Of a DNA stretch of 64,000 nucleotides, positions 701-58,615 are shown piece after piece. The DNA is from Mizuhopecten yessoensis (lineage: Eukaryota): positions 1,175,144-1,239,143 of the forward strand of contig NW_018408922.1 of the NCBI RefSeq assembly GCF_002113885.1, read 5' to 3'. The notes beneath the pieces are model-generated. The model was not told the DNA's origin. It saw only the letters and a program-made list of their open reading frames with translations, and did not search any database. Each line of letters begins with the position of its first letter. The first letter of the stretch is position 1. The position numbers and the translations under genes are program-made.

Positions 701-2911
701 AATCTATGTAAACTAACCTGATATGGGATGGGTCGCAATCATTTGTTGTTAGAGACAACCAAATGCAGTTCCAGTCCCAAAAGGAGAGCAAACGGATACA
801 TATGTAACAGAAAATCAAGACTGGCTGATACGAGTTTCGCACTCTGTAGTAAAAGCCTTATGAATACATGACCGATGATGATAACGTTTTGCGTCTTGAC
901 AGAAGATACGAACACGGTAATAATTATTTTTAAGTGAAGGATCAAGAACCACATTGATCTGATGAGGATGTTGATAAGCACATCTCGATACTTAAGTTGA
1001 TGAAATACAGATTTGGTATACAATTATGTTTTATCTTAGAAAACGAGTTAAAAAACACGATAGATCAATATTTTCTCATTCTCTATTTATGGAGGAAATA
1101 ATTCCAGAACATGGCCACACACCATTAGTCTTTAAGTGTACAGCTTTTTCCGCGACTGTAAAGCCAAACAAAATGTGAAAATAAGATATCAGGAAAGTGC
1201 TCACCAATTTATATAAAAAGGGTAAAACTTAAGGACATTATGTCCGCTTTGATCTGTTGAGGAATATTGTGGATTTAGTTTCGATTCTAGTCTTAGATGT
1301 TGAATTTGAGTTTCAATATGTGTATCAATAATATTATTCATTTTTGTATAACCCATAACTCCATTACGGATATGATAACGACACATGATACGCCTATCCT
1401 GCGGCTAATAGGAGTCGATCGTCCTGGAATACCAGGTGTACACGTTATGATACAATTTTCCAAAATAATAGGCCAGAGGCCATCACGTTTTACAGTTTGA
1501 ATAAGTTCTTCCTGTATTTTTCTACCAAGGTAGCTAGATGTTTTTATGAAAAATAACGCAGTGATAACATGCTGTTGCTTCTGTAGTTATCTTTTGTTAT
1601 AAGGAGAAAATTATAGCGAGTGGATAGGCCATGCAGGTAAACTATTTTCATTGGATTGAGTGTTTATACCAGACCTGGATAAGTTATTATTTGAACGGTT
1701 CAGAAATGAGTATTTCTGGACAGCAACTAATACTTTTTTTTCACACAGTTTGTATACACACATTTAGACGTGTTTTACTGAGAAACTACTGCAATGTGTC
1801 TGGGCTGATTTGTTGGAATACGTTTACGGGGACAGTTAATATTTCACAATTCAAGCGAGCCTAGAATTTAAAACTTGTGTAAGATTTTTTAATGTATTAT
1901 ATGAACGATTATAAGTTTTAACAGAAGATTATTCCAACTGTTTTTATTCGGCAGAATTTAACACCAGAATATTTAAATGAATTTCACGATGTTTTTTTGT
2001 TTTTATTCTGAGCTCTGCATGAGAAGTATCAGGAAAGAGTATCCTTAAAAATACAGAAAACAAAAAGAATACATATTACTGTATACCTAATTATTTTCTG
2101 TAAATCTACTGTTTAACTGGATGTAGATATGTTATACATACTCAGCAAAAGTAATATTTTTAATTCACTGATCTTTTTTCTTTTTTAAATCCAAGATGTT
2201 TATTCAAATGTTTAACAGGAACATGTTGACGAACTAATTGGAAATCGTCAGCAATGCTTAAAGGTAAGTCATATTTTAAGTTTATTTTGTTTATTGAGGT
2301 AAGTTGATTAATCATATTAATTAATGACATATATGAACTTGGTAACAATATACACGTACTTATGAAAAATAATCACTCAATGTAACATCAATACAGAAAC
2401 CCAATAAATGTTAACATTTTTGCTTCACCTTATGGATATTTCTTCCATTTTTGACTCATCAGTGTTTCTTAAGATTAAACGATTGACAATTTGTGTAAAA
2501 TATTCCGAAAGATGTTTTGGGGAAAAGGCGAAAGTTTATAACGTTATACATGAATATGGGTGCCTGCAACGATTTCTTAGTTGTAAGGTTACCATTGGTA
2601 GAACTAGTGCAATATTAAATGATACTTGTAGATGAAATAGCATACATACTATACCATAGAATGTCCATGGCATTACATAAAGTGTCTCTCTTACAACTGA
2701 AAATATGGAGAGCGAAAAGTGCGAACGTTTATGATTTGTACATATGTAAAACAGACGACTCTCTACCAATGAGAGATGACATGTATAATGTAAATATAAG
2801 ATTTTTGTCCCATCCAAAACCACATGATCTACTTCTTTAAAATAACATTGTACTATTTATGCTTAATTTCGTTATGACCAGTTTGCAAATATTTATCAAT
2901 TAAATACTTTT

Positions 2912-3003
2912 TTTTCTTTTGGTGAATATGTGGTTATATGAACTTTATCTCGGTTGATATATCGTTTTTAGGTCCATATAACCACATATTCACCGAAAGA
3001 AAG
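2912..3003. mobile_element. Hairpin relic of a non-autonomous (Crypton-like) element
   Basis: Inverted arms TTTCTTTTGGTGAATATGTGGTTATATG / CATATAACCACATATTCACCGAAAGAAA around a ~33-nt spacer. Confidence 0.55.
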
Positions 3004-3135
3004 TCCTTTATTGTCAGAATATATTTTAAACTATGATGATTTTATTTTGAAATAAAATAAAATAGAGCTTCATGAAATCGTGAAGAGAGAAATTTTCTGC
3101 ATCAGGCAGAAGACTTTGTGACATTATAACTGAAG

Positions 3136-3241
3136 TGACGTCATAAGGGGAATATTAACATGCTGTTGTTTTCTTTTTAAAAAGTATCTCAGACTCAATA
3201 TCATATGTCACCGAATTCCACGTGACCATGATCCAACCAAT
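3136..3241 (+). promoter_or_regulatory. Candidate proximal promoter of the hydrolase gene (CRE, E-box, CCAAT)
   Basis: TGACGTCA at 3136-3143, CACGTG at 3219-3224 and CCAAT at 3237-3241, 100-200 bp upstream of the ATG. These are short motifs, so function is inferred. Confidence 0.3.
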
Positions 3242-3338
3242 GAGGATGTAGTAATACTTTGTGTCATCTTAAATTAAATTTTATTACTCATACTTAATCA
3301 ATGACTTCCCATTTTATTAGAACTCATCATAACTTGAT

Positions 3339-4976
3339 ATGACGCATACGGACGAGACTATGGGGATTTTGGAACCACAATACACAAAATGGCGTCACTG
3401 GAAGATGTACTTCATATTAGGAGTTTTAGTTGCCATGGTCACGTTCTTAGTCGTCTTGTTAGGTATCACTGCTGGTCTGAATTTAGACGACATAAGTGAT
3501 ACAAGTAACTACAACAAGAACAATGTTATTCAATTGAAAGACATTCTACCGAATTCATTTTTTATCATGTTCAACATTGAAATTGAAAACTCCTCTGATT
3601 TTGAGGTCAGAGATAAAATCACCGTCAAATGGGAAACAGAGTCGAGTATGATTAGATACCAACAAGAAATCGAGGTCTTGATGTTAAACCAAAGTGTCGT
3701 AACCACAGTAAGCATATTGGACGAAAGAGCCGTAGTTTCGTACAGTCTAGAAAATCAGAAAAGTTGGAAGTGCGCAGAAGACATAAAACTCTTTGATTGG
3801 TTCTCGATTTTACAGCTTCTGATGATATCTGTTGAAGCTAATTACAGCGAAAACAATTGTCCTGGGCGTATTTGGACAATTCCATACAAAGGAAAGAGAG
3901 TTTCAATATGTATTAACGGTTTTCGAATTGTTTACGTAAGGTATGGTAACCAGGTTGCTATATCTAAAGATTGGAAAGTTCCATCGCCATCATCCATCGT
4001 ACTTCACATGGAAGCACCCACTTGTACGGTGAAGTATTCCGGAGTCCACACGTTCAAACATGAGCAGATTGCGACCGATTCAACCAGAAACCAATCGATA
4101 AATGGAAATAACTTTGAAAACGATGTAGTTGTTTCTAGAAATGACAAACCCATCTGTTTGTTCATACATGGACTAGGTAACCAGAATCCTAAAACTGGAT
4201 TTAAAACTCTGACTAGAATGGACTATTGGGGTCACATCGAAAACAATACCCCACAGTGTGCAGCACATAGGTTTATTCAATTCAACACAGTCGACAACGG
4301 CTGGGATTCCACTGAGCTGCACCAGATGTTCTGCGAGTTTGCTACAGGCTTAAAGTTTGGAGGAAATATTTCAAACAAGATACTATTTTCCCACTCAATG
4401 GGAAACAACATCGTTGCAGCAGCACTTCACAGCAAAATATGTACATTGGACAAGACATCTAGTAAATGGTTCTCAGTGTCTGCACCCTGGCGTGGTTGCA
4501 TGGTGGCAGACAGGCTGCAAAAGTTCTGCTCTAGTCAGCTTAAAGATAAAGATGGTAACGTATCACCACACATAATATCAAGAATTTTCAGACATACAAA
4601 ATTCTGTTCAGACAACGGTAACACATCAGCAGGTTACACTACGTTAGGAACAGCATATAAATCCAAAACAGGCATTTCCAACACTGACTTAGTTGCCGTA
4701 GCTCGACGGTTGGTGGACGGGGCGCTTTGTGGAACCTCGCCTTGGGGAATCGGGCTGAACCTTCGTTACAGTGGGACCATGAAGTTTATACAGGTTTTTA
4801 GTAAAATGAAAACTCCGAACGATGGTATTGTGGCACTGAATAGCTGCTCTATTTTTGGAGAGAAGTTCAAAAATTCATACAAAAGCAAATTTTACAAAAT
4901 GTCCGTTAATCATGTCGAGAGTTCCACGAAATTCGGCTGTTCCAAAGATCTGTGTTCGTGGTACCGATATCTGTAG
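3339..4976 (+). CDS. Intronless type II membrane protein with C-terminal alpha/beta-hydrolase (lipase/PGAP1-like) domain, 545 aa
   Basis: Long clean ORF with a hydrophobic segment at about aa 24-47. Oxyanion motif CLFIHGLG, nucleophile elbow SHSMG (S353), NDGIV (D495), VNH (H525), and many Cys. AATAAA at 4987-4992 just after the stop. Confidence 0.9.
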   Translation: MTHTDETMGILEPQYTKWRHWKMYFILGVLVAMVTFLVVLLGITAGLNLDDISDTSNYNKNNVIQLKDILPNSFFIMFNIEIENSSDFEVRDKITVKWETESSMIRYQQEIEVLMLNQSVVTTVSILDERAVVSYSLENQKSWKCAEDIKLFDWFSILQLLMISVEANYSENNCPGRIWTIPYKGKRVSICINGFRIVYVRYGNQVAISKDWKVPSPSSIVLHMEAPTCTVKYSGVHTFKHEQIATDSTRNQSINGNNFENDVVVSRNDKPICLFIHGLGNQNPKTGFKTLTRMDYWGHIENNTPQCAAHRFIQFNTVDNGWDSTELHQMFCEFATGLKFGGNISNKILFSHSMGNNIVAAALHSKICTLDKTSSKWFSVSAPWRGCMVADRLQKFCSSQLKDKDGNVSPHIISRIFRHTKFCSDNGNTSAGYTTLGTAYKSKTGISNTDLVAVARRLVDGALCGTSPWGIGLNLRYSGTMKFIQVFSKMKTPNDGIVALNSCSIFGEKFKNSYKSKFYKMSVNHVESSTKFGCSKDLCSWYRYL

Positions 4977-6855
4977 TTTACTGTAAAATAAAAAGTACAA
5001 CTTGTATGCATATGCAACGCTTGTTTGCGATTCCTGTACAGCATAAACTGTACCTTGGATAAGATGTCCAGTAACATTATGGTTTAACGTTTGTCGGCGC
5101 AATATAAACAAACATGATGTCATTTCTGCTACAAGAGTATGTCTACAATGATGTTCTGAATCAAGAAGTTAATTACTAATTATTGTGAATTCTAAAATGA
5201 TAATTATTATAACTGAAATCCAGAAATAACCTGATATTCACTGGTATGATTTATTATTTTCAAATAAAAAATAAATAATCCCAAGATGCATGTAATTTAT
5301 TTTTCACATTTGTTGAAGCCGACTGAATCTTAATTATCTGTATTCATTTATAATAAAATGAAAGGACCGTTTACATACAGTAAACATGTATTTAGTTATA
5401 CTTTTAAAAAAATACGTGGACGTTAAAAATAAAATTAAAATACCAACGCAAGTCGAGCCATTTAATGGTAATAATTTTGCTGTCCACGTCTAATAGCAAT
5501 GTAATATACAAACATATGATGCTTATATATATTCTACCAAGTAAAATGTAATTGAAGCGTTTTCCCCCTGTTTACTTCAGTGTCGTTACGCATATATTAA
5601 GCAAGGTAACATAGATAATCTAATTATCTAAATAAGCTGTTCTTTTGCGCGTGCTAAAATTGATCACGTGATGTCTCCATTCCACAATTACCTGTGTGTT
5701 TTTGTCATTTCCGACCTAATGAGCGATTTTGTCTTTTGAAAATGGAAATACTTAGGAAGGATTTTTTATTTTAGTTTTAGTCGTCATTTGGTCGACACAC
5801 GATAAACAATTGATGCTTTTTATTTCAATCAATTCAATCCACCAATTTATCAACATCCCTTGTTTAGACACGAAATCAGCATTCGATAGATTTACAATCC
5901 CCATGTTTAAGTCACCTTTACGGTAAGTTCAGCGGATCATTCTGAACTTGAGCTGCACAGGTTTTAAGTAAATTTAGAGCGTCATTGGAAACTTTGTTTG
6001 TCCGATGGCAAATCTACAAATACATGCAAAACTAAATGCGTGGACCCTGATTCGACAAATGAAACCAATCATGCGACTCTAGTTTACATTTGCATGATAA
6101 ATGTTTGAAAGACCGCTGCATATGCATGGTTTAGTGGAAAATAGTACACGCAAGCGAATGGTCTATTGTCAGATAATACATGGTCATTAACCAATACGCC
6201 GTGTCATTACATCGCAGGTGAGGTATGATTCTTGTTACTTAACAAAAGAACATAGTACATAATGAACACTTTATAATTTGGAACAAGAACAACATAATTT
6301 TTAATGACTTGGCACTCTGTCTAAAGGAGAAAAAGATGACGATAACATTTTCAAGCACATGGCATTACAGAAATAAAACATTATGTCTCAGATATTGAAG
6401 CCAGGAGCGTATACGTAACATTGATTCCGTTACATACACACAATCACACTATATATAATTAAGCAGTAGACGCTTACTCTTCTGGAACACCTGGTCTTAT
6501 TTGCTTTGTATATTTTCAAGGGTCTCCGCGTTAATCTTTCTTTTGTTCAGTTTTTGCCCTCGTTTTATCGATTACGAGTTCGAATTATGGCTTTGTTGAC
6601 ATTATTTTTCTTCACTTTAGAAATGAGGAAATACATAAACCTTTTGCGAGGTCTAGTTATAGGTGTGTTGTTTTTCACTTAAACAAATGTGACTAAACGG
6701 AAGACAATTCAGACTTGGTTGGTATTCAATATATGAAAAGTTTCCAGGGCTGTATAAGCACCCACTTGACGTACGCTTTATTGCACAAACACTCTTTATT
6801 GTACCATTTTTGTCTATATTGAATTAAATCATCTCTAACGTAAGTATAACATTTA

Positions 6856-7002
6856 TATATAGGATCTTACAGCTGTACTTGAGTTTCCGTTTCATATGAG
6901 ATTTATGAAACGAGTCTAAGAATGTTTCAATAAATGACAAATTTGTGGCGAGTTTCATAAATTTCATATGAAATGAAAACGAGTGTAAGATCCTTTTTAT
7001 CA
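6856..7002. mobile_element. Palindromic Crypton-like non-autonomous repeat
   Basis: AGGATCTTACA...TTTCATATGAGATTTATGAAAC pairs with GTTTCATAAATTTCATATGAAA...TGTAAGATCCT. Confidence 0.55.
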
Positions 7003-7579
7003 CACAATCAAGATTTGTGGCATTTATTCGTGTAAAACGACAATTATCATGCAACATTGAAATGTAAAATGCCACCATTTTGACTCCAGTGCGTAGGTCT
7101 GTGACGTCATGTACTTGTCCTAGGCGTGCCGTCACATTTTAAACAATTGAAACTTACAGGGCTGATCATATTACATGGGTTAGTACGCAAACAAATATGA
7201 CATAGGTATATTCACTGGATAAATATAATCATTACATAAGTGTTATATAACACAAGATGTTGGCTATCGACCTATATCAGGCTCACGGCTCTTGAGCCCT
7301 GGGCCTGATATGGTGTAACTATTATAACGTTTTTGTGATGAACATTTATTGTGCGTTATGCATTAATGATAAACACAGCATCATATAAACGAACCATGCT
7401 TGTTGTCGTTTTCCATAATATCTACGGTCACTCTTTCACCTGCCATTGTCTACAAACCTTGATTGGACAAACGTTCGGAACGAAAAATACGACAATGCGG
7501 ATGGTACATGAGATGCTTTGTCGGTAATGACGTCACAGGAAATATACTGCACCACTTTAGTAAACAATAAACTTAATTC

Positions 7580-7803
7580 GTAATACAACCATTATGAAAC
7601 AAGTAGTTTTAACTTATATTAATCCTTCTTGTTGGCCCGAATGTTAGCGCGCGGGGGATTTAATGTAGGAGGAAACCGAGGGACCCAGAGAAAACCCGCG
7701 TGGTCGGGCAGGTGATCCCATTCCTTTTCACTTCCGATCAGTAAATCGAACCCCGGAGGCCTTCGTGAAGGGCGAGTGCGTTATGCACTGTACAACTCGA
7801 CCA
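7580..7803 (-). mobile_element. tRNA-derived V-domain SINE (BivaV-SINE-like), copy 1
   Basis: GGAGGAAACCGAGGGACCCAGAGAAAACCCGCG is the reverse V-domain core. Reverse B-box AATCGAACC. Tail shared with the other copies. Confidence 0.8.
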
Positions 7804-8855: not shown

Positions 8856-9648
8856 ACTAGAACTGTAAGGACTAACTAATATCCCAGCTCCTATATAAAC
8901 CAGAAATGTAAGCTTAAGGCTAACTAAAAGCATTGCAAAGCAATCCATAGTCTCCCACCAGTAATTATTTAAATATATATGTCACTTACATACTTCCAGT
9001 ATTCCCTCTCTATGCCAAAACATACTTCCATACCAAATCTTGTTAGCAGGCCAGATGAACCAGTTTTGCTGAATCGTCCTGGTAGTTAAGGAAGAGTTGT
9101 CAAGTCAAAGATTCTTAACAAAGGATCATAACTCCTTAAAAAGGGTCTAAATGAAAAAAATACTCCCCTGATGCACGTACCCTGATGCACGACATCAGGG
9201 GGTAACTACCATATCTGTAAACATTCATTGAAATCGGCCCCATAGCTTTGGAGGAGTTGACTGGACAAGTATTTTTTCAACAAAGGGCCATTACTCCTAA
9301 AAAGGGTCAGATTGAACAAAATAATACCTGGATGCACACCATCAGGTGGTAGTTACCATATCTGAAAATTTTCGTTGAAATTCACCCCTTAGTTTTGGAG
9401 GATGTGTCCGGACAAGGATTTTTCAACAAAGGGCCATCACTATGTAAGAAAAAGGCCAGATTGAAAATATAATGCCTGGATGCACAACTGCAGCTGTTAG
9501 TTATCATATCTGGAAACTTTCGTTGAAATTGGTCCACTACTTTAGAAGGAGTTGTCCGGACAAACGTTTTATACGGACGGTCAGGTGGACGGACAAGCTG
9601 ATTCCAATATCCCCCCTCCCTAACTTCTTTGGGGGAAGGATAATAAAG
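8856..9648 (+). mobile_element. Helentron-associated interspersed element (HINE) with ~146-bp tandem monomers
   Basis: Starts AACTAGAACT. About 3.5 monomers (AACAAAGG..CAT.ACT near 9118, 9279, 9425). GGAC microsatellite-like stretch at ~9575-9595. Terminal palindrome CCCCCCTCCC..GGGGGAAGG followed by ATAATAA. Confidence 0.8.
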
Positions 9649-15000: not shown

Positions 15001-16617
15001 TATGATTTATCATAGAATTTATGTATGAAAGTTGGTTCATATTACTGGCACTTAATTATATCGACTTTGTGGAGTACTTGAAAATTCGATTATTTACATA
15101 CATGTAGTTACATACAAAAGTAATAAGTACAGGTGAGAACAACATATATCTGACGTTAGAACTTTACGTTGTATTCCTTGTGTAAAACAAACAGTTCTTA
15201 AGTAGCCGGAGCGGGCAGCCTGCTGACGTTTTGTTCCTAAATATGATATTTTGAGAAGTGCGGGCAATTTAACGGAGCGGGCAATACACAAGATATAACA
15301 ATACTCGCGAATATACTTTGGTATCTTAATTGACGATTTTACAGTATACTAGTATGTATATTATATTAACTACATCTTCAATAAGATTCATCAGTGTGGA
15401 CATATGTAATATCAAAGTTTTACTTTTAACACAAACAATGTACCAATTTAACGTGTCGCGAAGTTTCAATACCGACTGGTCCATTTGTAAAAAGCTATGA
15501 CAGAGTGAGCGATTTATATTGTTTACCTGTACAACAATATTACGAAATCGTATATTACTTATGTTCGATAGAGAGCGTGTACACACTGTATACACTATAT
15601 TTAATACGCACATTGTGTAGGAAGTAAAACGTTGATATTGATTTAGCTACAGTTTTGATAAAGCTTTTTTTTCAATGGTTTTCTTTCTATATCTTATATA
15701 TTAACCCCCTAAATTAAAAATCCACAGACTATTTTTTTTCTTCAAATTCGGTATGAATAATGGTCATTTAGATTGTTTTGTATGGACGAGTTACATCAAC
15801 TATTAGGAATAATATTTTGTCTTGTTTTCTCCGATTTTCAACCTGTTCCACAATAATTGCACCAGAAATGCACTATCATGAAATTAAATAAAAAGTGTTT
15901 CATTACAAATACTAACACAAAAACAAATTTGTTTAACATAAGTAATTTTACTTTGTTTTTATCCTATGTTGATCTTGTCTGATAAGTTAAATAGCCACTT
16001 AAATCATATCTCTTAAATCATATCTTTTCCTTACAGGGTTTTGGGCAGATCTCTCGGAAGATCTCCAGGGGGCAACGAGTCCTTTTCAATCTATGTTTGC
16101 ATTCAAGCATTTAGCCAATCGCTAGCTTATCGACAAGACAGCCCTAACCTGTACATCTAAGACCAACCAGCACGGCACTCGACCAAAACTGTCAAAATGA
16201 TAATGGCGATCATACACGGGAAATATCTGAATTATATTTATCGATAGAAGGTGTAACAACACGATGACCGAAGCCATTGTTGAAGTGAAGTAGTGTGGAA
16301 ACACAAGCGAGATATTGTCAGTGTATTCAAGGACACATACGATTTTGATGGATAAGTGTTCACTCAATTATAACTAATTTTTAAATTCCTTCTCATAATA
16401 GGCACACATCTACCAGGTACTTCACAGTTAGCGTTAATTTTGCCACATGTTGAATTCTCCTTTACACTATGTGATTAGACGCTTACGTGGTTATTGAAAA
16501 GGAAAGGTGATTATCTTACCAATATTTCTTTAATTTTGAAAGTGTATATATTGACAAAAGAACATTTGTTTAGGTATTTGTACAAACTTTCTTTGGCAAA
16601 AGATAATTATTTTGACA

Positions 16618-18402
16618 ATGGGTTCGGACAAAGAGAACTCGGAGGTTAGAAACAGTAATTTGAATAAACCCAAGAACAACAAACGCATATCGAGTGGTAA
16701 AAAAAGGAGAGCGAGGGACAGTAATCATGTTGTTAGGCCGGTAACATTACAGGAACACCAGTCGAGAAAACAGAAGATATCGACAGAGAAAACCGGACCG
16801 GTTCGTAATGTGACCACTCTAGAAGGTTCTTCAGATTCAGAAAGTACAAACAGGGAGGCTGTAACCGGTGAACGTGAAACAACGAACGCAGGTTCATTAA
16901 CAGAGAATTCAAAAAAGTTGGAAATTCATGTTGATTTGAGGCTAGATCTCTGCCAGGAGACAAACGCTTCGGTTGAAGAAGCCGAAGAAATAGTCGCAAG
17001 TGCAAATGAAAGAGACGCAGTGACATGTGATAACAGAAGAGACACAAAAAACCCAAATCGTTGTCAAACAAAGTCGATTGCTCGCAAGGATTCCTCATTA
17101 GATGTGATAAATGAGGAAAAGGAAACAAATACCTGTCAAAATGTTATTATCAGGAACGAAACTCTCAAACGGGAAATAACCTTTGACGAGCTAGTGTTAG
17201 ATGATAGCGAGATATTGAGGACGAGTACTCCCACGGGTGATTCTTCTGTACGCTCTCGCGTAAGACCAAAAACTTGTTCATCAGTTGCAAAACGGAAAGG
17301 CTCATTTGGAGCATTTGGAAGACCTAAATCGTCTTTCACTCCAAGGACAGTAAAATATTCTGAAACATGTAGTCCAGCTTCGTGCTGTCAGTTTAGTGAT
17401 TTTGTCAATCGTCCAGCCACTTCACGCTCATATCGTCCGTCAACGGGAAATACAAACATGTCAAATTCCCCAAGAAGAAATATGGAAACTAGGAGATCAT
17501 TCAAGATAACAAAAGAAGATCTGGAACATTCTCTTCCGAAAACGAGTTTCTTTAATTGCCACGATAAGGTCCTAAAGGATGCAGGAATCGAGGTTGAGGA
17601 GGTTTCACCTCTTGGTGCAAAAAAGCGACAGTTCATGCAGCTATTACAGCAAAGAAATAAAGACAGAATAGAAAAGGATAAGGCAAGAAAAATACCTCCA
17701 CCGAAAGTGTTGGGCATGCTGGAACTGTACGAACTGGAATGTAGCCAAGATGACTCAAATACTTCATCTTTAGTTAGCTTTGAAGATCAACAATCGAACA
17801 ACAAAAGCAAGAAAAATGCTAAATCCAGGAAAAAGGGTGATCTTGACGAGGAAGAAATACGTGTTGATTATCAACTGCTGCTGATATACCTTAGGTATGT
17901 GAAAGCCAACCCAGCGGAATTCCTTCAGTATCACAAGAAACACGCGGCGTCAGTAAACCTTGTAAACGTCAGACAAGGAGATTCACTCGTGAAATTAGGA
18001 GGTATATTCCAGCGTGGTCGACATGGAGTTTCCACAGAGAACATTCTTGTGAAAGCCGTGCATGAAATTAGGCCACGATTCACGGATCCAGGGCAGTGGG
18101 CTAGTGCAAATAAGGAGAAAGAGCTGCTAGCTCTAACGTCCACGAAAAAGGAAAATGCCATTCCTCCAAAAACGGAACAAACCAAAAAGGAAACAGCGAG
18201 TAACCAGGAAGAACCAAAAACAGAATATGAAAGGATTAAAATCAAACTTGATGGATGGCTAAAAACAGTGACAACAGCACAACTAAATAAAGCGAAGGAG
18301 CTGGCCCTTCGGGAGTTAGGGCAGGAGGACATATCACTCTCTAGATGGTGGGTCTCGCTGAAATCATGTAACTATATAAGACAGAGAGGTCACAAAGTTT
18401 AG
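16618..18402 (+). CDS. Uncharacterised intronless basic/disordered protein, 594 aa, with helical C-terminal region ending RWWVSLKSCNYIR
   Basis: 1.8-kb ORF in AT-rich DNA. First ATG is at 16618 in ACAATGG context; the track start at 16612 is TTG. K/R/S/T/E-rich with five RPx[ST] motifs. Confidence 0.88.
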   Translation: MGSDKENSEVRNSNLNKPKNNKRISSGKKRRARDSNHVVRPVTLQEHQSRKQKISTEKTGPVRNVTTLEGSSDSESTNREAVTGERETTNAGSLTENSKKLEIHVDLRLDLCQETNASVEEAEEIVASANERDAVTCDNRRDTKNPNRCQTKSIARKDSSLDVINEEKETNTCQNVIIRNETLKREITFDELVLDDSEILRTSTPTGDSSVRSRVRPKTCSSVAKRKGSFGAFGRPKSSFTPRTVKYSETCSPASCCQFSDFVNRPATSRSYRPSTGNTNMSNSPRRNMETRRSFKITKEDLEHSLPKTSFFNCHDKVLKDAGIEVEEVSPLGAKKRQFMQLLQQRNKDRIEKDKARKIPPPKVLGMLELYELECSQDDSNTSSLVSFEDQQSNNKSKKNAKSRKKGDLDEEEIRVDYQLLLIYLRYVKANPAEFLQYHKKHAASVNLVNVRQGDSLVKLGGIFQRGRHGVSTENILVKAVHEIRPRFTDPGQWASANKEKELLALTSTKKENAIPPKTEQTKKETASNQEEPKTEYERIKIKLDGWLKTVTTAQLNKAKELALRELGQEDISLSRWWVSLKSCNYIRQRGHKV

Positions 18403-42914: not shown

Positions 42915-43830
42915 GTTTAAGCATATTTTATTGTACAAATATACAAATGGATCGGACAACAAGTTATTACAACTTAATAGAGTCCTCTCCTCGATACATA
43001 AGGTAAAATTAGTGTATATGCTTTTGGGAAAAGGGAAAAAGATATGGTGGAGAAGGAAAGATGGGGTGGGAGGGGTTGGGGAGACGGAGGGGAGGGGCGT
43101 CACCTAGAAAAGTAAACGTGTAAACTGAGAAATCGATCCGCATTTGAATAAATAATAAACTATACAAATTGCATGACATGCATCCTGGTAGAGTAATTTC
43201 AAAATGAACAGACTCAATGTAACAAATAAATCAGGCAAAATAATGACATACAATTTCATAAACACATATAACAACTTACACATAAATAAAAATAGAAAAG
43301 TAATTATAACTATCAAAACCTATTGCCGGATTTGATGAAATGATGCACATGTCTAAAGATACTTATGTTGTTTTCTACCGAAAGTTGACTATTACCAAAC
43401 AAAAGTAGTTCTGAATTAAAATCAACATGCAAGGCATTCAAATTTTGGAGCAGGGTATGTCTTTCGTTGTTAAAAAGTAAGCACTCACAAAAAAAAGTAA
43501 AAGGCATTTTCACAGGGATGGCCACAATAACAAACTGGAAGTTTAGTGTGCAAAGTGTTCAATTTACGTTCACCGAAACCTAAGTAGATTGGTGGAGGAG
43601 ATTGAACATTTGAAGTTAACGAGTTTATAAAAGAAGGTAATGAGGTCAATGATCGTACTGAAAGGTCCAATGAATTCCAACCGCGAAGAGTTGAAAATAT
43701 AAAAGATGAATTTGTTAGAGAAAGCCTGAAAGGACGAATTCTATAATCATCATTGTTTCTAGGGGTGTAATGGTTATTTTTTGCAACGGAAGATGGCAAT
43801 AGAGAATTTATATAGTCTGGAGTTTATTTG
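42915..43830 (-). mobile_element. 5'-truncated decayed CR1-clade LINE (3' end)
   Basis: Fragments FRLSLTNSSF..STLRGWNSL, GERKLNTLHTKL, CYCGHPCENAFYFF and LLLFGN..FIKSGNRF are homologous to the 56-kb LINE. Same 3' stem-loop tail. Confidence 0.85.
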
Positions 43831-44987: not shown

Positions 44988-45644
44988 TTACAACATAGCG
45001 GTTTTGGGTCGTTTTTTAACGAAGGGTCCGGATGTGTGTTGGTGCACGCGAGGCCTTGCAACTGTCGTCACCGGTCTGTGCATGACGTCAATCTTTGGTT
45101 TCTGCACGTGAAACAGATTTGGCTTGACTATCCAGTGACGAGAGCCTTTTTGTGACCTGAGATTGTCCAGTGCTATGTGATGACTTCTCACGGCCTCCAT
45201 CCGCCTACTGGTCTGATACGGAAGGAGCACACGTCGGCCCTTTTTGGCCTCGCTATTAGGGTAACATATAGCTTCCGTTCCCACCACGTCTATCACGGGG
45301 GCCACTTTAATTCTCTCCGCCTGAAGTTTCGCTTTGCCTCCGATGGACGTAGGTTTCGTGGCAAAAAGTTTAGCGTCGATTTTGACTTCCCCGAGACTGA
45401 TGGTGTTAGTGTCGGGGGTGTCATCCGTGTTGTTGTCGTCTGCTGAGGGTTGGTACCGAGGTGTCCGGACATTTATCTGGACCAATTCGTCCAGAAGGTT
45501 GTACTTTTCTTGCCACATCTTTGTAATCGCCTTACGCTGCTGAGTTTCTAGTCTCACCTCCTTTTCTCGAAGTCTGTACTCATTACGACGGTTAGAAAAC
45601 ATGGCGTTGAAGTATTTCATTTTTGAAACTGTTGCCGTCGTCAT
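44988..45644 (-). CDS. Intronless 218-aa basic protein with N-terminal coiled coil (CCDC190-like motif)
   Basis: Clean ORF with CAAAATGA start context. Shares a gapless 45-aa motif with the 29035 protein. RPVT and RPKTA motifs. Candidate 5'UTR intron 46067-46360 on the minus strand (GG|GTAAGC ... TTTCAG|). Confidence 0.8.
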   Translation of the reverse strand: MTTATVSKMKYFNAMFSNRRNEYRLREKEVRLETQQRKAITKMWQEKYNLLDELVQINVRTPRYQPSADDNNTDDTPDTNTISLGEVKIDAKLFATKPTSIGGKAKLQAERIKVAPVIDVVGTEAICYPNSEAKKGRRVLLPYQTSRRMEAVRSHHIALDNLRSQKGSRHWIVKPNLFHVQKPKIDVMHRPVTTVARPRVHQHTSGPFVKKRPKTAML

Positions 45645-47359
45645 TTTGACTCTTCACAAAATGTTGTTAAACTTGTTTTCCCGCAATGTTTACTGTGTCA
45701 TATCATCGATATATTTTGGAATATAATAATAATATTTCTTTTCATTATAACTTATGTCCGCGTTGCCGGATGTTCCGGTTTCATCATATATAATGAGACA
45801 GCGTTTTCACTTCATCCTTTGACAAAAATATTGAGTATATGTGTTTGGTTATTTGATGGCCGGATTTATGAAAAAAACAGGATGTCGTTTAGATTTCTGC
45901 TTATGAAATATAAAACACGCTCGATCTGGTCTCTGTTGTCGAATCCACGATATGAAGAAATAATATCCAGCCTCTACCCGAAGAATAATTCTGAACAGTT
46001 GACGATCACATTCGTAAATTGATTTTTACATAAGATGTTAAATAAATAAAAAAACGAAGTGTCGTCCTGAAATCAGTACGAAAGACGCCCAAAGTAGTCC
46101 GATATTTACACCGAACATGCGTAGACATCATCCGTTATGAAAACAAACAGTATTACTGTAAGTACATCGTTCACTTCATCCACACAATTCTCAACAGGAC
46201 TAGTTTATATATTTGTTTTTCATTACGATCTCTTATCAAATAATAAATCCGTATTTAAACAAACACGACTTAAATCGCAGTCTGGTTTTACCTGTTGACT
46301 GGCCGTCCGTTTTGGGCAATAAAACATGGTTTGGTCGAGAACGTCATTTGTACAGCTTACCCTGTTCGTCACTGCCCAAGCGCAAAATCTCGATTATAAT
46401 CCTCTTACGGGTCGAGAAACAACGTGCTGCTTGGTTGGCTCCCTAGGGGTGACAAGTCCCTAAACTTAGCTACTTATAGGTATATACAGTAGCCCTAATG
46501 ATACACCTGTAATTAGTAAGATTATCCAACACCAAGGTATACAGGTGTAAGTAGGACAAGTGTAAACTGATACTCGCGATCGGTTCGTTAGACTGTATCG
46601 AATGGGTTTTAAAAGCGGAAGAAAAGGGTTTTATATTATAAATATACCGAATATTTTCGCTCATTGTGCGATCTTGTGTTATGGCTAGGTATTTAACTAT
46701 TTAGTCTAATATACACTTACTGTAACAGAATAACTTAAAGAACGAATTATTATATATACACTTTGGGTGCGTGTCATTTTAATTTAGAAAAAAGGGCGTT
46801 TTAATTTCGCTCAAAACTGAATAGAGATTTACCCTGTAATAATGAAAGGTTATATCTAAAAACTCATTAACTTTTCATATCTCCAACTAGATATCGCTGC
46901 TCCTTGTTCAGGTAGTGGACTATGGTTCTGTGTGCAGACGTCTCACACCTTCGTACCAGCGTCTCTTAGCGGTATTTATTTAATGGGTTAGGATATGGGT
47001 ATGATTGATTGTTATCAATATCGATTTGATCAATCAAGGGGATTCGATGACATTTTAACCCTCTCAGTATGGGTCCTGCATCAATCATTATCAAAGTAAA
47101 TATGTACTGCACATCCTGTATTTACTATGCACACATGTAGGTTATGTAAATTACAGAAGTACTTATAAGCATTGCATAATGTCATATAACTACATCTCGC
47201 GAGAAAAATGTTCTTAAGTTAGCTTTGAGCGAATAGTTTATCGCAAATAGAACAAACAGTTTAAACATATGCATATAAAACACAGTAAAACATATGTAAA
47301 CTTTGTTCAAATGCTTCATGCATATTTACATATGATGTACTTTAACTGTGCCAAGTATC

Positions 47360-49544: not shown

Positions 49545-50130
49545 GACACTATACATTTGTTGACTGGGTTTGAGGACAACATGTGTTATGTTAAACCAGA
49601 GGCCCAAACTGTTGCCTGAGGCCGAAGGCCGAAGGCAACAGTTTGGTCCGAGGGTTCAACATAAAACATGTTGACCGAAAACTCAGTCTACAAATGTTTT
49701 GTAATAACTTTTTCAAAATTTCTGACGTTTCCAATTTGGATTTATCTTGAAAAAAATCCCGTGGGAATGCGTTGTGTTTTGCTTCAATATACTCTGTTAT
49801 TAATTTCTCTGCAACTCTGATCACATTTTTGGTGTTTGTACTGTCTCTGCTATTAAGAATTTCATCAATTTCTGCAGCAGCGTATTCCGAAAATCTGTCC
49901 ATGATTGTACATAAGGCAGCCGACATACATATACATTGCAGACGGCCGGAAGCAGACGTGAGCAATACTTCCTATAGGGATGCCACTATTGGTAATTGAT
50001 TAACGGAAGTTGCCGAGTAATGGCCGGGAAGTACCGAATAGTAATGAGCTGTGACGTAAGCAGTCAACATTTCACTCAATGCCAGTCAACATTTTTGTGA
50101 GGCAAACATCCGGAATTTCGAACTTTTTTC
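49545..50130 (-). mobile_element. Crypton (CryptonV-like) element relic with N-terminal ORF remnant
   Basis: Hairpin CCAAACTGTTGCCTGAGGCCGAAGGCCGAAGGCAACAGTTTGG. Repeated CAGTCAACA motifs. Peptide MDRFSEYAAAEIDEILNSRDSTNTK resembles Crypton/KCTD1-like recombinase N-termini. Confidence 0.65.
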
Positions 50131-50131
50131 A

Positions 50132-52950
50132 CTATTGAAGAGTAAAGAGAATAAAAAGTAAAGGTATAACAACAAATGTTATGGACCGAAGTTCGTCCTC
50201 GGAGAGCACATGGAAATCAGAGATGGCTTCCACCGTATCCATTGGTACACCTTTCCATATCATTGAGCGACGCTTTACGTTACTCTCACTGATAACACGG
50301 GTTTGAACAGTGTTGTCTGCCGAAGTACATTCAACCATTTGGCGAGCGACGTCGCAGTCTGACGGTAGAGATGTCTGCAACGGTGGCCTGTATTTGTTGC
50401 ACAATGCAGCGATGATACAGATGAAGTCCACTATATTGGTCAGATCCTTGTTAGGTACAATATTGGACAGGTACTTCCAGGTTTTCAATCTACCGTTGAC
50501 AGTTTCAACCGCCTATCGCAATTTCGTTACCAGCCGGGAATTGTTGGCATCTTCGGTTGACATTTGTTTCTTTCCTTTTTCTAGGAACGGTGGCGAGTGC
50601 GTTTCGATCCCAATTTCTTCGAGGAAAGGAAGAACATCCCGAAATCCTCAAGCATATAGATATCCCATCTGCATTTGTCTGAAACATGTGCTGTGTTATT
50701 GCCGCGTCATTGTTTCTACCGTCAGCGAAGTATGGACCGAGAATACTTACTATGTAGCCATCTGTTGTCGTGACCATCATGGGTTTTATCAGGAGACGGT
50801 ACTTATACATAGAGAAACATTTCCTTTGAAAACTGTGCTTACTGCTTTTTTTGTATGCATATATATGTACCATCCATGATGAGAATGACTGAATCTGAGA
50901 TGGAATTGGAAATAATTGAACGGCTAAATCGGTTTTATGGTTTTCAAGGATGTCTGATCTAGCGATATGTTGAAAACCTAGGTGCGATGGTACGAAGTCC
51001 TTTTTCAAAGCCTTCTTTGCTGGTGCAATGTAATGAGCCACCTTCCGCCTGTTGCTGATTCTACATAATGTTGCAATTACCCTAACGTTAAAGAAACGTG
51101 TCAACATCAGGATGATTTAACATAGATCGATACATAATCATTTTGTTAAAATAGCAAGTGTACAGTATGATTGGGTATAGTACATGTACATGTATATACA
51201 CTATATACTAGCGAATAAACCGACATTTCTAAATATTTCTTCAGGTTGGTAAGTATGGATTAGCGTATGCACACAAAGGTGTAAAATGTGTATGAGTTTT
51301 CCACACAATCGATGTCGATTCGGCTACGTTGTAAACCGTATGTACAATAATTGTTATGTATGTACCATAATGACTCGATTTAGCTACGCTTTGTTTAATA
51401 CTTGGTCATAGATGTGCGAGAATCTATGAGCCCACTCATCTCGATTTAGAACTGGCCCACTCCGGCGTTTTCCAGATGGCTTCCTTTATTTGCCGTTTGA
51501 ACAGATTGCTATGACTTAGCATTAACCAAAGCGTAGCTGAATCGAGTCATTTCGGTACATTTATAACAATTATTGTATACATTCGCTTACAGCGTACTTA
51601 GCCGAATCGACATTACATATCGTACTAGTCATCGAAACGTCACATATACACACTTATTGGTTGTGTAACAAGAACTTTTCATAATGAATAAACCGACACT
51701 TGTGAAAGATTTATTTTCCTCAATCGTGGGACGATATGTTTCAATGAATTACAGACAAGGCGGAGCAGAGTCCGGAGCAATCCTTTACAAGACTGAGATA
51801 TAAAGAATGTCTTATAAGTGATGGTGTTATATAAGTTATATTCAATCGAGTTAATCTATTCTTAAATACAAGTTATAATACCAAGAGCTTTGGGGAGTGA
51901 TTTGTTTGATAATTATCAAAGAGATTGAATATGAATGAAATGCTATTGTCATGCATTTGATATTTGGTTTATCGCAGAACATAATTTAGCTGGAACATCT
52001 TTATTATATTAGTTTGCCGTTATGTGTCGACGTGTTGTTGAAATAATAACAGTTTGGTATAAACTGTATTATTGGCGCCATTTATTTTATGACGTAACAA
52101 TTTAAAGGTGTGATTAGGTATGAAGTATGCAGATATATTACATATAATAATAATAATAATAATAATAGTAATTTTACCTATCGGACACTCCTATACGCAA
52201 CTTCATCAGGGCATTCCAATTGCCTGTCGTGGTGAGCGCGATTTGGTTTTTGTATTGACTTCACTATAGAACGTTTGCCATCAAACTGCTCTCTATGCAA
52301 CCCAGTTGTATTGAGTAATTGATCATCTGTCATATTCATGTTGTCAAAATCAATTTTATCGGTGTTTACTGCAACATTACGGAGTCCAGTAAGAAGAACG
52401 GTTAATTCATATGTGGGCACCTTCGAATTTGATTCCAATGCCATCATATCTACTGTTACCCCCTGTTTCAGTTTTTGGCAATGTAGGTGTGACTTGCAGC
52501 ACCGTGTTCCCTGAGGAATCAAAACACTTTGACTGACAAAGACTTGCAAACTTGCCTCTGACGGAACATTTGTCATGCCATTACCCGTTTTCTTGCAAAA
52601 CACACATCTTGATTCGGCTTGATTCGGTTCTTCCAGCACCTTGGAACGGCAAAATTACATAACGATTTTGGAACTAGATGTCTTACATGTCTTTGCACTC
52701 CTTTTTTTGTGTTGCAGTCTTCCTACATTTCAAGCAAATGAGGCTGTCCTCGCTGATAACTTTTCCCGCATTTTCGGTAAAATATTTCCGATAACGATAG
52801 TTCATTTTGCTTGCTTGGCCATTTTTTTTATTCTGACGCAACAAATCCCACATATTTGGTATTTCGGCATTATTTGTTGGTGTTTGAGCACTAGATATAA
52901 TTACTTTTGCCAGTTGGAGGGTAAAATAATTCATAAATTTCATCAAAAAT
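50132..52950 (-). mobile_element. Decayed PIF/Harbinger-clan (ISL2EU-like, DDE_Tnp_4) transposase pseudogene
   Basis: Frameshifted fragments: Cys-rich CVFC..IPQGTRCCKSHL, TGLHREQFD, HLGFQHI, FQRKCFSMYK..LIKPMMVTTTDGYIVSILGPYFADGRNNDA and KTWKYL..IIAALCNKYRPP. About 1 kb of non-coding interruption at 51107-52178. Confidence 0.85.
51312..51613. mobile_element. MITE with ~100-bp TIRs nested in the transposase relic
   Basis: ATGTCGATTCGGCTA...ATGACTCGATTTAGCTACGCTTTG...GTCATAG / CTATGAC...CAAAGCGTAGCTGAATCGAGTCAT...TAGCCGAATCGACAT. Confidence 0.85.
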
Positions 52951-53749
52951 AGTGTCTTACCTAAAAAGCGTAGTTGTACTGTACACGTGTACAGGGATTT
53001 GCTGACATGCTTCGATAGAAGTATGTCGCACTAAATAGTAACGAAATTATTACTAACAAAAAATGTAAATTAATAGGTATGTTATTAATGTATAAACAAA
53101 ATTTTCCGTCGATTTGAAAAAAAAACCACTATTGCCTTATATTTTTTTTAAATGAATAACTGAAGCAGGACTCGAACCTGCCCCGTTTATTTTCTAGTCA
53201 CAAGTAAACTGCGTTACACATTCATAGAACATATATATATTGGCAATTACAAACTGATTTTACCCGAGAAACACCTGTCGCAGTTTAGAGAAACTTGATC
53301 ACCCCTGTTTTCCATTATTTTGAGCACTTTCCCAAAGGAGGTCCACTTTTCCGTAATACGATTTGTTTTTGCATATTACATCACGGTCACAAAAAGTTGA
53401 AAGTGTTAAAAGTATTTTTTTTAAGTCCGGGAAACCCCATCACTTTCATAGATATATTGCATTTGGCTATATTTGCAGTATCATATTAACAATGCCTAAT
53501 TTCTCAGCAGTTTAAAAGTTCATATTCAATTGGTTTTATATCTTTTCTATGCATTTTCGCTACACGAAATGTTTTACTTCTTAATTGTTTTCCCCGTTTT
53601 CATAACTGCCATCTAAGGGAAATATGGGCAGTTTTCCGCTATAGCTCAAATTTCAATGATAAACTATACACGTGCAACGTTCTTCCAAAAACTTACCTTC
53701 CCCATTTCCCAAGTATAAATTAATAATAATAATAAGTAATATACAACAT

Positions 53750-56004: not shown

Positions 56005-58615
56005 TTTACTTTGACTTTAAACATATTTTATTAACCAGAATTGGAAAATAGGATTTGGCACAAGTTATTACAACTTATGAAGCCATCTCCTTACAACAAT
56101 AATTCAAAACAACAGATGATGATATAGACTGTCAATTACAATTCATAGTAGTATGAAGCGACACATACACATACAAACAAACAAAAACATATTTTAAAGT
56201 CAAGTCCATAATCGAAACATGTTAAAATCTTCCACTGGATCTAATAAAAGTTTGTACTTGTTTGAATACATCACAATTTGTATCCAAAGCCAGATTTTCA
56301 TTTCCAAACAGTAATAATCTCAACGTTAAATGTACATTTAAATGATTTATATGATCAAAAAGTAGAGTACGAGCATTTGTGTAAGGTTGACATTCAAAGA
56401 AGAAGTGATAGGCATTTTCGCAATGGTAGCCACAAATTAAGCAATTGGAGTCTTGGACCAAGTTTTCACGGTAAAGATCATGTTTGAGAGGACTGCATTC
56501 GTGTCTTAGTCTGGTATGAAGATTGTTTAGTTTTCTGTCATCACGTAGGTAATGAGGTGGTACTGTATATGGTATGTTGGGGACTAGAGCTGATTTAAAA
56601 TATGAGAAAGACATCGATCTAATATTATAGTCTAGAGTATTCCACATTTTTAATGAAGAAGGCAAGAAAGATAAACTTGTAGCAGAGAGTCTGAAATTGG
56701 GAGTTTTGTAGTTATCATTATTTCTAAGAGCATGTCGGTCTTCTCCTACCTTCGTGGGGAGTAGATTTGTTAGGTAGTTTGGGGTTTGATGCCTATTCAC
56801 TTTGTAGATTAACTGAAGTTTTCGTCTTCTTCTTCTATCCGAAAGTAATTCAAGACCAGTTTCTGTATATAATGATTCATTTCTAGCATATGACGGTAAA
56901 CCTGTAATTATTCTAGCTACTTCACGTTGAGCCCTCTCTAACTTTTCAGAATCGACCAGAGTACAACCATCCCAAACCTCACATGCATATTCTAAAACTG
57001 GTAATTTATAAGTTTTGTAAATTCTTAAGAGAGCATCCCGCTTCAACATATATTTGAGTTTTCGCAAAATATTTATTTTTTTCATTACCGATTTATTGAT
57101 TTCACTTACATGATCTGACCATTTTGCATCTGAATTGAATGTAAAGGCGCCTATGCATACTGTTAAAATTCAAAATATTTCCATCAAAAATCAGTTCAAA
57201 ATCTTCCTCTATATCATTTGAATTTGATATGAAAATAACTTCCGTCTTATTTGGATTGAAAGTAACAAGCCAAGTGTTGGCCCACCTATTTAAGGCTTCC
57301 AGGTCCCTATTCAAAACTGTTTGTATATCTAGACAAGAAGATGAATAGCTTTTTAAAGACGTATCATCAACAAAAAGACTTGTTGTAGATTCTAGTACTT
57401 CGGCGATTTCATTAATATAAATTAAGAAAAACAAGAATTGAACCCTGAGGAACTCCAGCACATATCAAACCAGCATCAGAAGAAGAATTATTTATAAACA
57501 CTTTCTGTTGTCTGTTGCTTAAGTAGTTTTCGATCCAAGAAAGGAAATTTCCTGAGATACCATATGATTTTAACTTGACTAATAAACCATTATGCCAGAC
57601 TCTGTCAAAAGCTTTTGAGATGTCACAGAAAACTAAAACTAAACAAGTATGCTTCTTTTCTTCTAGATCAAGACAAATATTATGACATAATTCGATTAAT
57701 TGATACACAACTGAGTGGCCAGGCATAAATCCTGATTGGTACTGATAAAATAGAGAATTTTCAAAAAAATAAAATTTGCAAGTACTTAAAGATAACACTT
57801 TCAAATGTTTTACCAACCGTAGACGAAAGAGAAATCGGTCTATAGTTAGAAGCAGAATGCCTATCACCCTTCTTAAAAAGCGGTAACACTTTAGCAAATT
57901 TCCAAATATCAGGATAAATACAAGTAGATAACGATAAGTTAAAAAGAAGTTTCTAGTGGTTTACATACAGTTTTTGCAGTGTACTTCATCCATGCCTGAG
58001 GCTTTGTCAAGTTTTAAATTCAACAAGACATCACATATTTCATTATAGTTAATTATAGGAGATTCAAATGAACTCTCCGTTTTCGGTTCTAAAATAGGAA
58101 TATCAGTATTGTTATCATCTATGCTAGTGATACTGCAAAAATTGTTATTCAATAAATTTGATTTGTCCTTATCGTCAACTAATAAACGTCCCGATGTTGA
58201 ATCAACTAAAGTAGGAATAGACTGCGAGGTCCCTGAATTTCCCATCAGTCGCCAATATTTTTTAGGATCAGATGAGTAATAAAAATCAATAAGATTTCCA
58301 ACATTTTTACAGAAGGATTTTCTAGCATGCTTTTTCATGTTATTAATTTGTTTCGCTGTTTTTTGAGTTTAGATATATCCCGTGGATGCTTAGAATGCTT
58401 GGCTGTTTTTCGTAATCTATCGCGTAGTCTCATATTTTTTCTCAGGACTAAATTCATCCATGGCTCATCGTTAGGTCTTATAGTAACTTCTTTGTGTGGT
58501 ATTGTTCTACAAGCAAAATCGAAGCCGAATCAACAGAGTTACATGTAGCAAAAAGAGTATTCCAGTCATATTCCTCGATAAGGTTAAATAATACATAGTC
58601 ACCTCTTTTTTAGGA
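56005..58615 (-). mobile_element. CR1-clade LINE, 5'-truncated, frameshifted reverse transcriptase
   Basis: QSGFMPGHS, FCDISKAFDRVWH, GVPQGSIL, FLIYIN..FVDDT, WLVTFNPNKT, PVLEYACEVWD and C-terminal CLICG..CENAYHFFFEC. 3' UTR stem-loop and AATAAAATATGTTTAAA tail. Confidence 0.93.

Follow-up and report, generated by a model that had tools for sequence, protein, structure and literature searches.

The window analysed here, a 64,000-nucleotide stretch of the genome of the scallop Mizuhopecten yessoensis, carries on its plus strand, at 3339-4976, the coding exon of a predicted type II membrane-anchored lipase, and this exon belongs to a real gene of the scallop, on which purifying selection acts. 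The gene does not stand alone, being one of about ten copies of a tandemly expanded, unnamed bivalve family. The product is very probably a lipase-type hydrolase, and the domain that precedes the catalytic one is likely, at the level of the predicted fold only, to be LolA/ependymin-like. The whole reading that we propose is of a selected and expanded bivalve membrane-anchored lipase with its own lipid carrier, acting in the endolysosomal system and gained once from a protist; we give it an even chance of holding in all its parts. The family appears to be undescribed, as a two-domain lipase family without a Pfam model. Searches of the accessible main texts yielded no paper on the family or the fusion, nor any that names one of six gene identifiers from the family; supplements with lists of transfer candidates could contain it.

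The uninterrupted coding sequence recognised in an earlier, sequence-only reading of this DNA is confirmed as a single open frame of 545 codons. Compared with the neighbouring paralogue, the gene has a dN/dS of 0.25, which falls to 0.17 when the catalytic domain is taken by itself, and none of the 5 differences found within the frame in two resequenced runs creates a stop. The exact 545-residue protein is already present as a database record, and its relatives are annotated as uncharacterised only. The GC content of the frame (0.40, as against 0.42-0.49 in three other open frames of the window) represents a host-like base composition, which is uninformative on origin if the event is old.

Residues 268-545 (4140-4973, plus strand) form an alpha/beta-hydrolase lipase-like domain, as assigned by fold comparison and conservation. 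The triad proposed from the letters alone lies at S353, D495 and H525, which are kept in 137, 139 and 138 of the 139 aligned family members, respectively, and the HG oxyanion motif lies at residues 277-278, each position of which is kept in 138 of the 139. The elbow around S353 reads SHSMG and is indeed non-canonical, departing from the GxSxG pattern; across the family, S, T, A or V stands at position 351, and G is never common there. AHSxG elbows occur in active Bacillus lipases. Helices 388-434 lie at the expected position of a lid in the model. The predicted structure has the alpha/beta-hydrolase fold and the sequence has the Ser-Asp-His order, with ester hydrolysis as the predicted activity.

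In structure searches with the model, residues 265-545 matched bacterial family I-type lipases best, with Z scores of 17.6-18.7 and rmsd values of 3.1-3.8 over 219-241 aligned residues, the best single match reaching Z 18.7 at rmsd 3.1 over 219 residues. These closest solved folds include Pseudomonas aeruginosa LipA (1ex9), Burkholderia lipases and Bacillus licheniformis BlEst2 (6wpy), and they have the HG oxyanion motif, the HSMG elbow and the NDG acid motif in common with the scallop protein. The profile of the 139 family rows aligns the NDG motif with D229 of 1ex9, which we take to be the position of the catalytic acid, at an E value of only 0.11, identity is 14-16%, and phmmer returned no lipase at E≤1. 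Unlike the bacterial enzymes, the scallop protein has S, T or A rather than G as the first residue of the elbow across its family, many conserved cysteines, a membrane anchor and an extra N-terminal domain. LCAT and lysosomal phospholipase A2 (LPLA2; PF02450), which belong to the same broad alpha/beta-hydrolase branch, follow below the bacterial lipases at Z 14.7-15.7, and gastric lipase follows at 11.4. LPLA2 is a lysosomal lipid hydrolase; both LCAT and LPLA2 are soluble and are not known to have a LolA-like domain. The sequence-only reading held that classical animal lipases are not matched, and this agrees with the searches: no Pfam family exceeded its cut-off for the window protein, and LCAT, which matches weakly at the elbow in 9 of 12 family members, gave the window protein 19.2 bits against a cut-off of 21, over the 44 residues 347-390 only.

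The remaining architecture was examined on an AlphaFold2 model built with 139 sequences (pLDDT 86, pTM 0.74). The predicted N-terminal anchor of the earlier reading is found as a putative single transmembrane signal-anchor at residues ~25-47 (3411-3479, plus strand), with a hydropathy of 3.0 over the 19 residues from residue 25 and a helix at 16-47 in the model. Eight N-glycosylation sequons lie C-terminal to it, as would be expected if the C-terminus is lumenal. On the bivalve side, 15 of 21 rows have an internal, type II-like anchor, as do 10 of 14 rows on the oomycete side and 8 of 34 elsewhere. Ahead of the anchor, residues 1-24 (3339-3410, plus strand) form a predicted cytoplasmic tail in which ETMGIL is a degenerate acidic dileucine-like motif, ending in IL rather than LL or LI. 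A strict [DE]xxxL[LI] stands at the same place in the four closest relatives of the window protein, and 10 of the 16 bivalve-group tails of at least 10 residues carry one, as compared with a mean of 0.41 and a maximum of 5 in 10,000 shufflings; the carriers fall in about five sub-lineages with related tails, so that the count of 10 overstates independence. Among the other rows with a hydrophobic segment, the motif occurs in 1 of 14 on the oomycete side and in 0 of 34 elsewhere, and several paralogues are without it.

Between the anchor and a low-confidence linker at residues ~236-267 (4044-4139, plus strand; pLDDT below 50 at 246-266) lies a beta-sheet domain, residues ~65-235 (3531-4043, plus strand), which the sequence-only reading had overlooked and which is predicted to be lipid-binding and is modelled with a pLDDT of mostly 80-97. 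Its LolA/ependymin-like character is suggested by weak Foldseek matches to LolB (E 4e-4) and LolA (E 5-6e-4), and by a TM score of 0.57 to an Atlas cluster of LolA, which is below the naming bar of that resource, together with ependymin leads at 0.82-0.85. Searches with the whole model are filled by the lipase domain and barely probe this one. Neither Ependymin (PF00811) nor LolA matched any of 12 members at E≤0.1 in Pfam. Cysteines 145, 174, 191 and 229 are conserved in bivalve and non-bivalve rows, and a profile built from bivalve N domains alone recovers 17 of 71 long non-bivalve rows at E<0.01; judged from these sequences, the domain is homologous in the protist-like members. The family also occurs without it, because many members of ~290-360 residues (P0048, P0050, P0056, P0065, P0087 and others) have a signal peptide and then the lipase domain directly.

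Human EPDR1 has a LolA fold and is lysosomal and lipid-binding, as described in PMC6363788 (see also PMC6608618), and the former also presents EPDR domains fused to a lysosomal-type hydrolase, cathepsin. The scallop N domain shares the fold of this LolA/EPDR superfamily at the level of a lead, with no match to the Ependymin Pfam model. In the known fusions, the partner is cathepsin, whereas in the scallop family, it is a lipase with a type II anchor; the word 'lipase' does not occur in the main text of PMC6363788.

A search of the scallop genome with the protein gave 11 matches, six of them on the scaffold of the window, and a search with an amoebozoan member gave 10 of the same 11 loci, all of these counts being lower bounds. 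Eight copies could be read whole; all eight are collinear with the protein from the anchor to the stop, and none has an intron in the coding exon. Two of these eight paralogues, at G000:C5595:1149406-1153185 (L003) and G000:C1566:546182-549967 (L004), are broken in this assembly, one by a premature stop in the N domain and the other by a frameshift where that domain ends, which may reflect birth-and-death turnover, null alleles or assembly errors. L003 is adjoined by a 2.6-kb degenerate tandem array with a period of ~160 bp (L032, ~1840-4490). Two further copies, on C5034 (L006) and at C5595:949774-953559 (L007), are near-identical, lie on different scaffolds with matching flanking frames and may be uncollapsed haplotypes or a very recent duplication. 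Orthologues at 50-52% are present in three other scallop genera (Ylistrum, Pecten and Argopecten), and family members are present in the unionid mussels Potamilus and Sinanodonta. On this sequence distribution, the bivalve family is older than the split of the scallop and unionid lines in the early Palaeozoic, and any transfer would be old since both groups have the family.

A search of 1.84 billion cluster representatives gave 450 matches at E≤0.001, of which the best 150 were listed. Twelve of these 150 clusters, formed at 50%, fall in the bivalve group, and the four of them that carry names are all bivalves. Among the 150 listed, the tenth bivalve-type row scores 1.8e-59, and the match after it, at 4.9e-43, belongs to the amoebozoan Luapelamoeba hula. 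Looking up 20 representative rows returned two bivalve names, one amoebozoan name and one MMETSP transcript, and the named non-bivalve rows overall are the oomycete Nothophytophthora, L. hula and that transcript. No named non-bivalve animal, choanoflagellate or fungus was present among the 20 looked-up rows or in the word-based protein searches, which are insensitive and gave 7, 7 and 9 matches. A pattern scan of metagenomes identified 18 relatives among 261 matches; 13 of these could be placed, none of them inside the bivalve group. Pattern scans of viral contigs (26 matches) and of 185,579 prokaryote genomes (211 matches) contained no relatives; both used short patterns and are not sensitive. 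A viral or prokaryote source was thus set aside on these insensitive scans.

The sequence-only reading had recognised, from recall, the motifs of an expanded oomycete family, and this resemblance holds in part. Homology to an oomycete protein is significant, at an E value of 2.3e-18, and Oomycota is the commonest taxon (0.99) in the Atlas clusters nearest to the window protein, a resource that covers clusters of at least 50 only and thereby favours the heavily sequenced oomycetes. The closest non-bivalve matches among those listed, however, are not from oomycetes, the nearest outsider being the amoebozoan. All named animal rows among the matches listed are bivalves. With a profile made from bivalves only, the best row of the oomycete clade, so labelled from one named row (P0007), ranks 91 of 139. 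The family thus appears, from its sequence matches, to be wider than oomycetes, with members in Amoebozoa, oomycetes and many protist-like sequences. Oomycete proteins annotated as 'AB hydrolase-1 domain-containing', such as BBJ28_00007970 of Nothophytophthora, have both domains and the triad in common with the scallop protein, and many have an internal anchor, as in the scallop family; they differ in that identity is 22-25%, they form a separate clade in every tree and the dileucine motif is present in 1 of 14 of them.

Five trees were built: a FastTree tree, a second one with 151 rows, before which 11 short or duplicate rows had been dropped, two later ones with 83 of those rows and a last one with 49 rows. 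The 49-row set was also used for the AU tests; P0069, P0028, P0143, P0045 and P0100 are among the long rows not included in it. In each of the five trees, the bivalve rows come together as a single group, in some with P0069 beside or inside it, and support for this group is 0.99 in the FastTree tree (with P0069 as its sister), and by SH-aLRT, 81 with 151 rows, 98 in the first 83-row tree and 100 with 49 rows. In the careful 83-row tree, the group has support of 78/79 with an unconverged bootstrap and a backbone without resolution. P0069 is a divergent 545-residue member with an N-terminal anchor, which moves away from the bivalve group in another tree; the organism it comes from would bear directly on the origin of the family. 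A clade of bivalves, the oomycete clade and a few further rows has an SH-aLRT of 98 with 151 rows and 95 with 49 rows, while the sister of the bivalves is without resolution in either 83-row tree and lies elsewhere in the FastTree tree. In the AU tests, neither a grouping of bivalves with the oomycete clade (p 0.80) nor one with the amoebozoan (p 0.61) is rejected. The exclusive bivalve and oomycete constraint scored 15.2 likelihood units above the quick free tree, and the quick free search was evidently suboptimal because the constrained trees beat it in both tests. The sister of the bivalve group is therefore unstable, and the trees as they stand name no donor. The bivalve-type sequences cohere among diverse protist-like ones, and these five trees give no supported nesting within a stramenopile or protist clade.

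The choice between an ancient protist-to-bivalve transfer and differential loss is close to evenly balanced. We regard an origin by transfer from a protist into an early bivalve as having slightly better than even prospects on the sequence data, because all named members of the bivalve group among the 150 listed clusters (4 of 12) are bivalves, because the scores drop sharply after the tenth bivalve-type row, because all eight whole copies have one coding exon and the bivalve rows are one group in every tree, and because the names known outside the group belong to one oomycete, one amoebozoan and one MMETSP transcript. Vertical inheritance, by which an ancestral eukaryotic gene would have been lost in most animals and the same enzyme kept and expanded by bivalves, is a serious contender that falls somewhat short of an even chance. 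It fits the breadth of the family among Amoebozoa, oomycetes and protist-like sequences, the amoebozoan identity of the best non-bivalve match among those listed, the bivalve and amoebozoan clade at p 0.61 and the lack of supported nesting in any donor group. Moreover, 7 of the 12 bivalve-group clusters are without an organism name, 1 more was not looked up and the listing covers 150 of the 450 matches, so that other animals may be among the remainder, and the patchy distribution of EPDR and cathepsin proteins in animals, as given in PMC6363788, provides a precedent. Vertical inheritance, however, needs many independent losses, and the looked-up rows and word searches supplied no named non-bivalve animal, choanoflagellate or fungus. 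The coding region is also intron-free in all whole copies, and old animal genes seldom lack introns in their coding regions. Both alternatives named at the outset, transfer and patchy retention, stand, and an oomycete donor specifically is not established by these data.

The narrower form of transfer, in which the donor was an oomycete or one of its close stramenopile relatives, is unlikely in our judgement. The SH-aLRT values for the clade that joins bivalves and oomycetes in the 151-row and 49-row trees argue for it, as do the likelihood and p value of the exclusive constraint, the Oomycota clusters at the top of the Atlas matches and, as a weak pointer, the frequency of the internal anchor on the two sides. 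However, the grouping is absent from the FastTree tree and from both 83-row trees, both groups have long stems, so that attraction is possible, and the bivalves lie at most beside the oomycete clade and never inside it in any tree. The low rank of that clade by bivalve-only profile score, its single named row and the sampling of the Atlas also count against it.

Transfer and retroposition had both been suggested by the description of the gene as intronless, which applies to the coding exon from anchor to stop and probably not to the gene. In the annotated isoform X1 of the neighbouring paralogue, a first exon of 66 nt is followed by a 3.5-kb GT-AG intron, and the start of its exon 2 is matched in the window gene by an AG at 3320, 18 nt ahead of the ATG. 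The window gene therefore probably has a 5' intron, with a likely splice acceptor (a pyrimidine tract and the AG ending at 3320) and 18 nt of exon before the ATG at 3295-3338 on the plus strand. A candidate upstream exon of 45 nt (2219-2263), preceded by AG and followed by a strong AAG/GTAAGT donor, was located by inspection at 2219-2269 on the same strand and is in frame with the coding exon. At 3330-3332, the reference has an in-frame TAA and both resequenced runs have CAA, an allele with which an upstream exon could lengthen the protein at its N-terminus, as happens in isoform X1 of the neighbour. No RNA run is among the listed runs that contain the gene region; from two runs presumed to be RNA, contigs of 180 and 152 nt were obtained that lie within the coding exon, too little to count. 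Old transferred or retroposed genes tend to look like this, with one coding exon and an intron at the 5' end.

It is nevertheless very improbable that the gene arose as a retrocopy from one of the ordinary animal lipase genes with introns. A single coding exon within an intron-rich genome would suit such an origin, but all 11 genome matches belong to the family, the LCAT match remains under its cut-off and confined to the elbow, and every animal lipase family is much more distant than the protist proteins. Retroposition as the alternative source was accordingly dropped, with no spliced parent found among the genome matches, whose counts are lower bounds.

An origin of the sequence in a protist inhabitant of the scallop, by contamination or misassembly, which the protist-like affinities of the protein might suggest, is vanishingly unlikely and was rejected in view of the runs of several studies, the repeat-spanning contigs and the size of the scaffold. 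The window sits on a scaffold of 2,296,768 bases (2.30 Mb) in a 988-Mb genome. Of the 18 listed runs, 14 DNA runs from 5 studies contain at least half of the words of 3000-5400, and one contig in each of two DNA runs, from different studies, covers 2969-6497; on these contigs, the gene has the depth of the unique flanks, and the contigs extend into high-copy host repeats. The gene physically belongs to the scallop genome, since 14 runs contain it and single contigs join it to its repeat flanks, and the orthologues of other scallops lie on contigs of up to 71 Mb. The argument against contamination from the repeat flanks is thereby upheld, the flanks being high-copy repeats of the same organism, as is the continuity of the gene with them.

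In the window, very high-copy short elements at 6870-7130 and 7560-7730 reach a summed contig depth of up to ~60,000, against 11-14 in unique DNA, the former having a self-inverted, MITE-like structure, and a tandem repeat of 147-148 bp is present in 2.5 copies at 9184-9563. Further single open frames of 615 (16555-18402, plus strand), 373 (29032-30153, plus strand) and 221 residues (44988-45653, minus strand), with no Pfam family over the cut-off, are probably large exons of host genes. On the minus strand, a fragmented non-LTR reverse-transcriptase element lies at 56222-58368 (RVT_1, E 1.2e-13), with a shorter fragment that resembles it by eye at 43485-43823, and decayed DDE transposase pieces, presumably Harbinger-like, lie at 49591-53030 (DDE_Tnp_4, E 0.0055, under the cut-off).

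Acidic dileucine motifs route proteins to endosomes and lysosomes, and the motif in 10 of the 16 bivalve-group tails suggests lysosomal work; an endolysosomal role for the family is, in our estimation, fairly probable. We propose that the anchor would keep the lumenal part, glycosylated and rich in disulfides, attached to the membrane, and that the tail motif would route most family members to endolysosomes via adaptor complexes. A lipid bound or extracted by the beta-sheet domain would then be handed to S353-D495-H525, which would hydrolyse an ester bond of a glycerolipid, phospholipid or sterol ester via an acyl-enzyme intermediate. The most natural setting for this would be the digestive cells, in the intracellular digestion of filtered microbes. 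As for its history, the two-domain gene would be old and widespread in protists; the single coding exon would have entered the bivalve line before the scallop/unionid split, and gain of the 5' intron would have been followed by expansion through birth and death.

In its boldest form, which we offer tentatively and consider rather doubtful as a whole, an early filter-feeding bivalve would have captured from a protist, possibly a stramenopile, a complete lipid-carrier-plus-lipase gene that all other animals lack. The gene would then have acquired a 5' intron and a signal for lysosomal sorting, and multiplied, to serve intracellular digestion as an enzyme with its own activator domain. To our knowledge, few documented eukaryote-to-animal transfers go back to the early history of a class and have persisted; if true, this one would be such a long-lasting transfer, tied to the digestion of microbes by bivalves. 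Whatever the origin, a LolA/ependymin-like domain fused to a lipase would be common to bivalves, oomycetes and amoebae. As a rule, lysosomal lipases depend on activator proteins that are separate from them. The idea of a carrier domain within the enzyme can be put to a direct test, whose outcome would give a function to the expanded, uncharacterised oomycete family as well.
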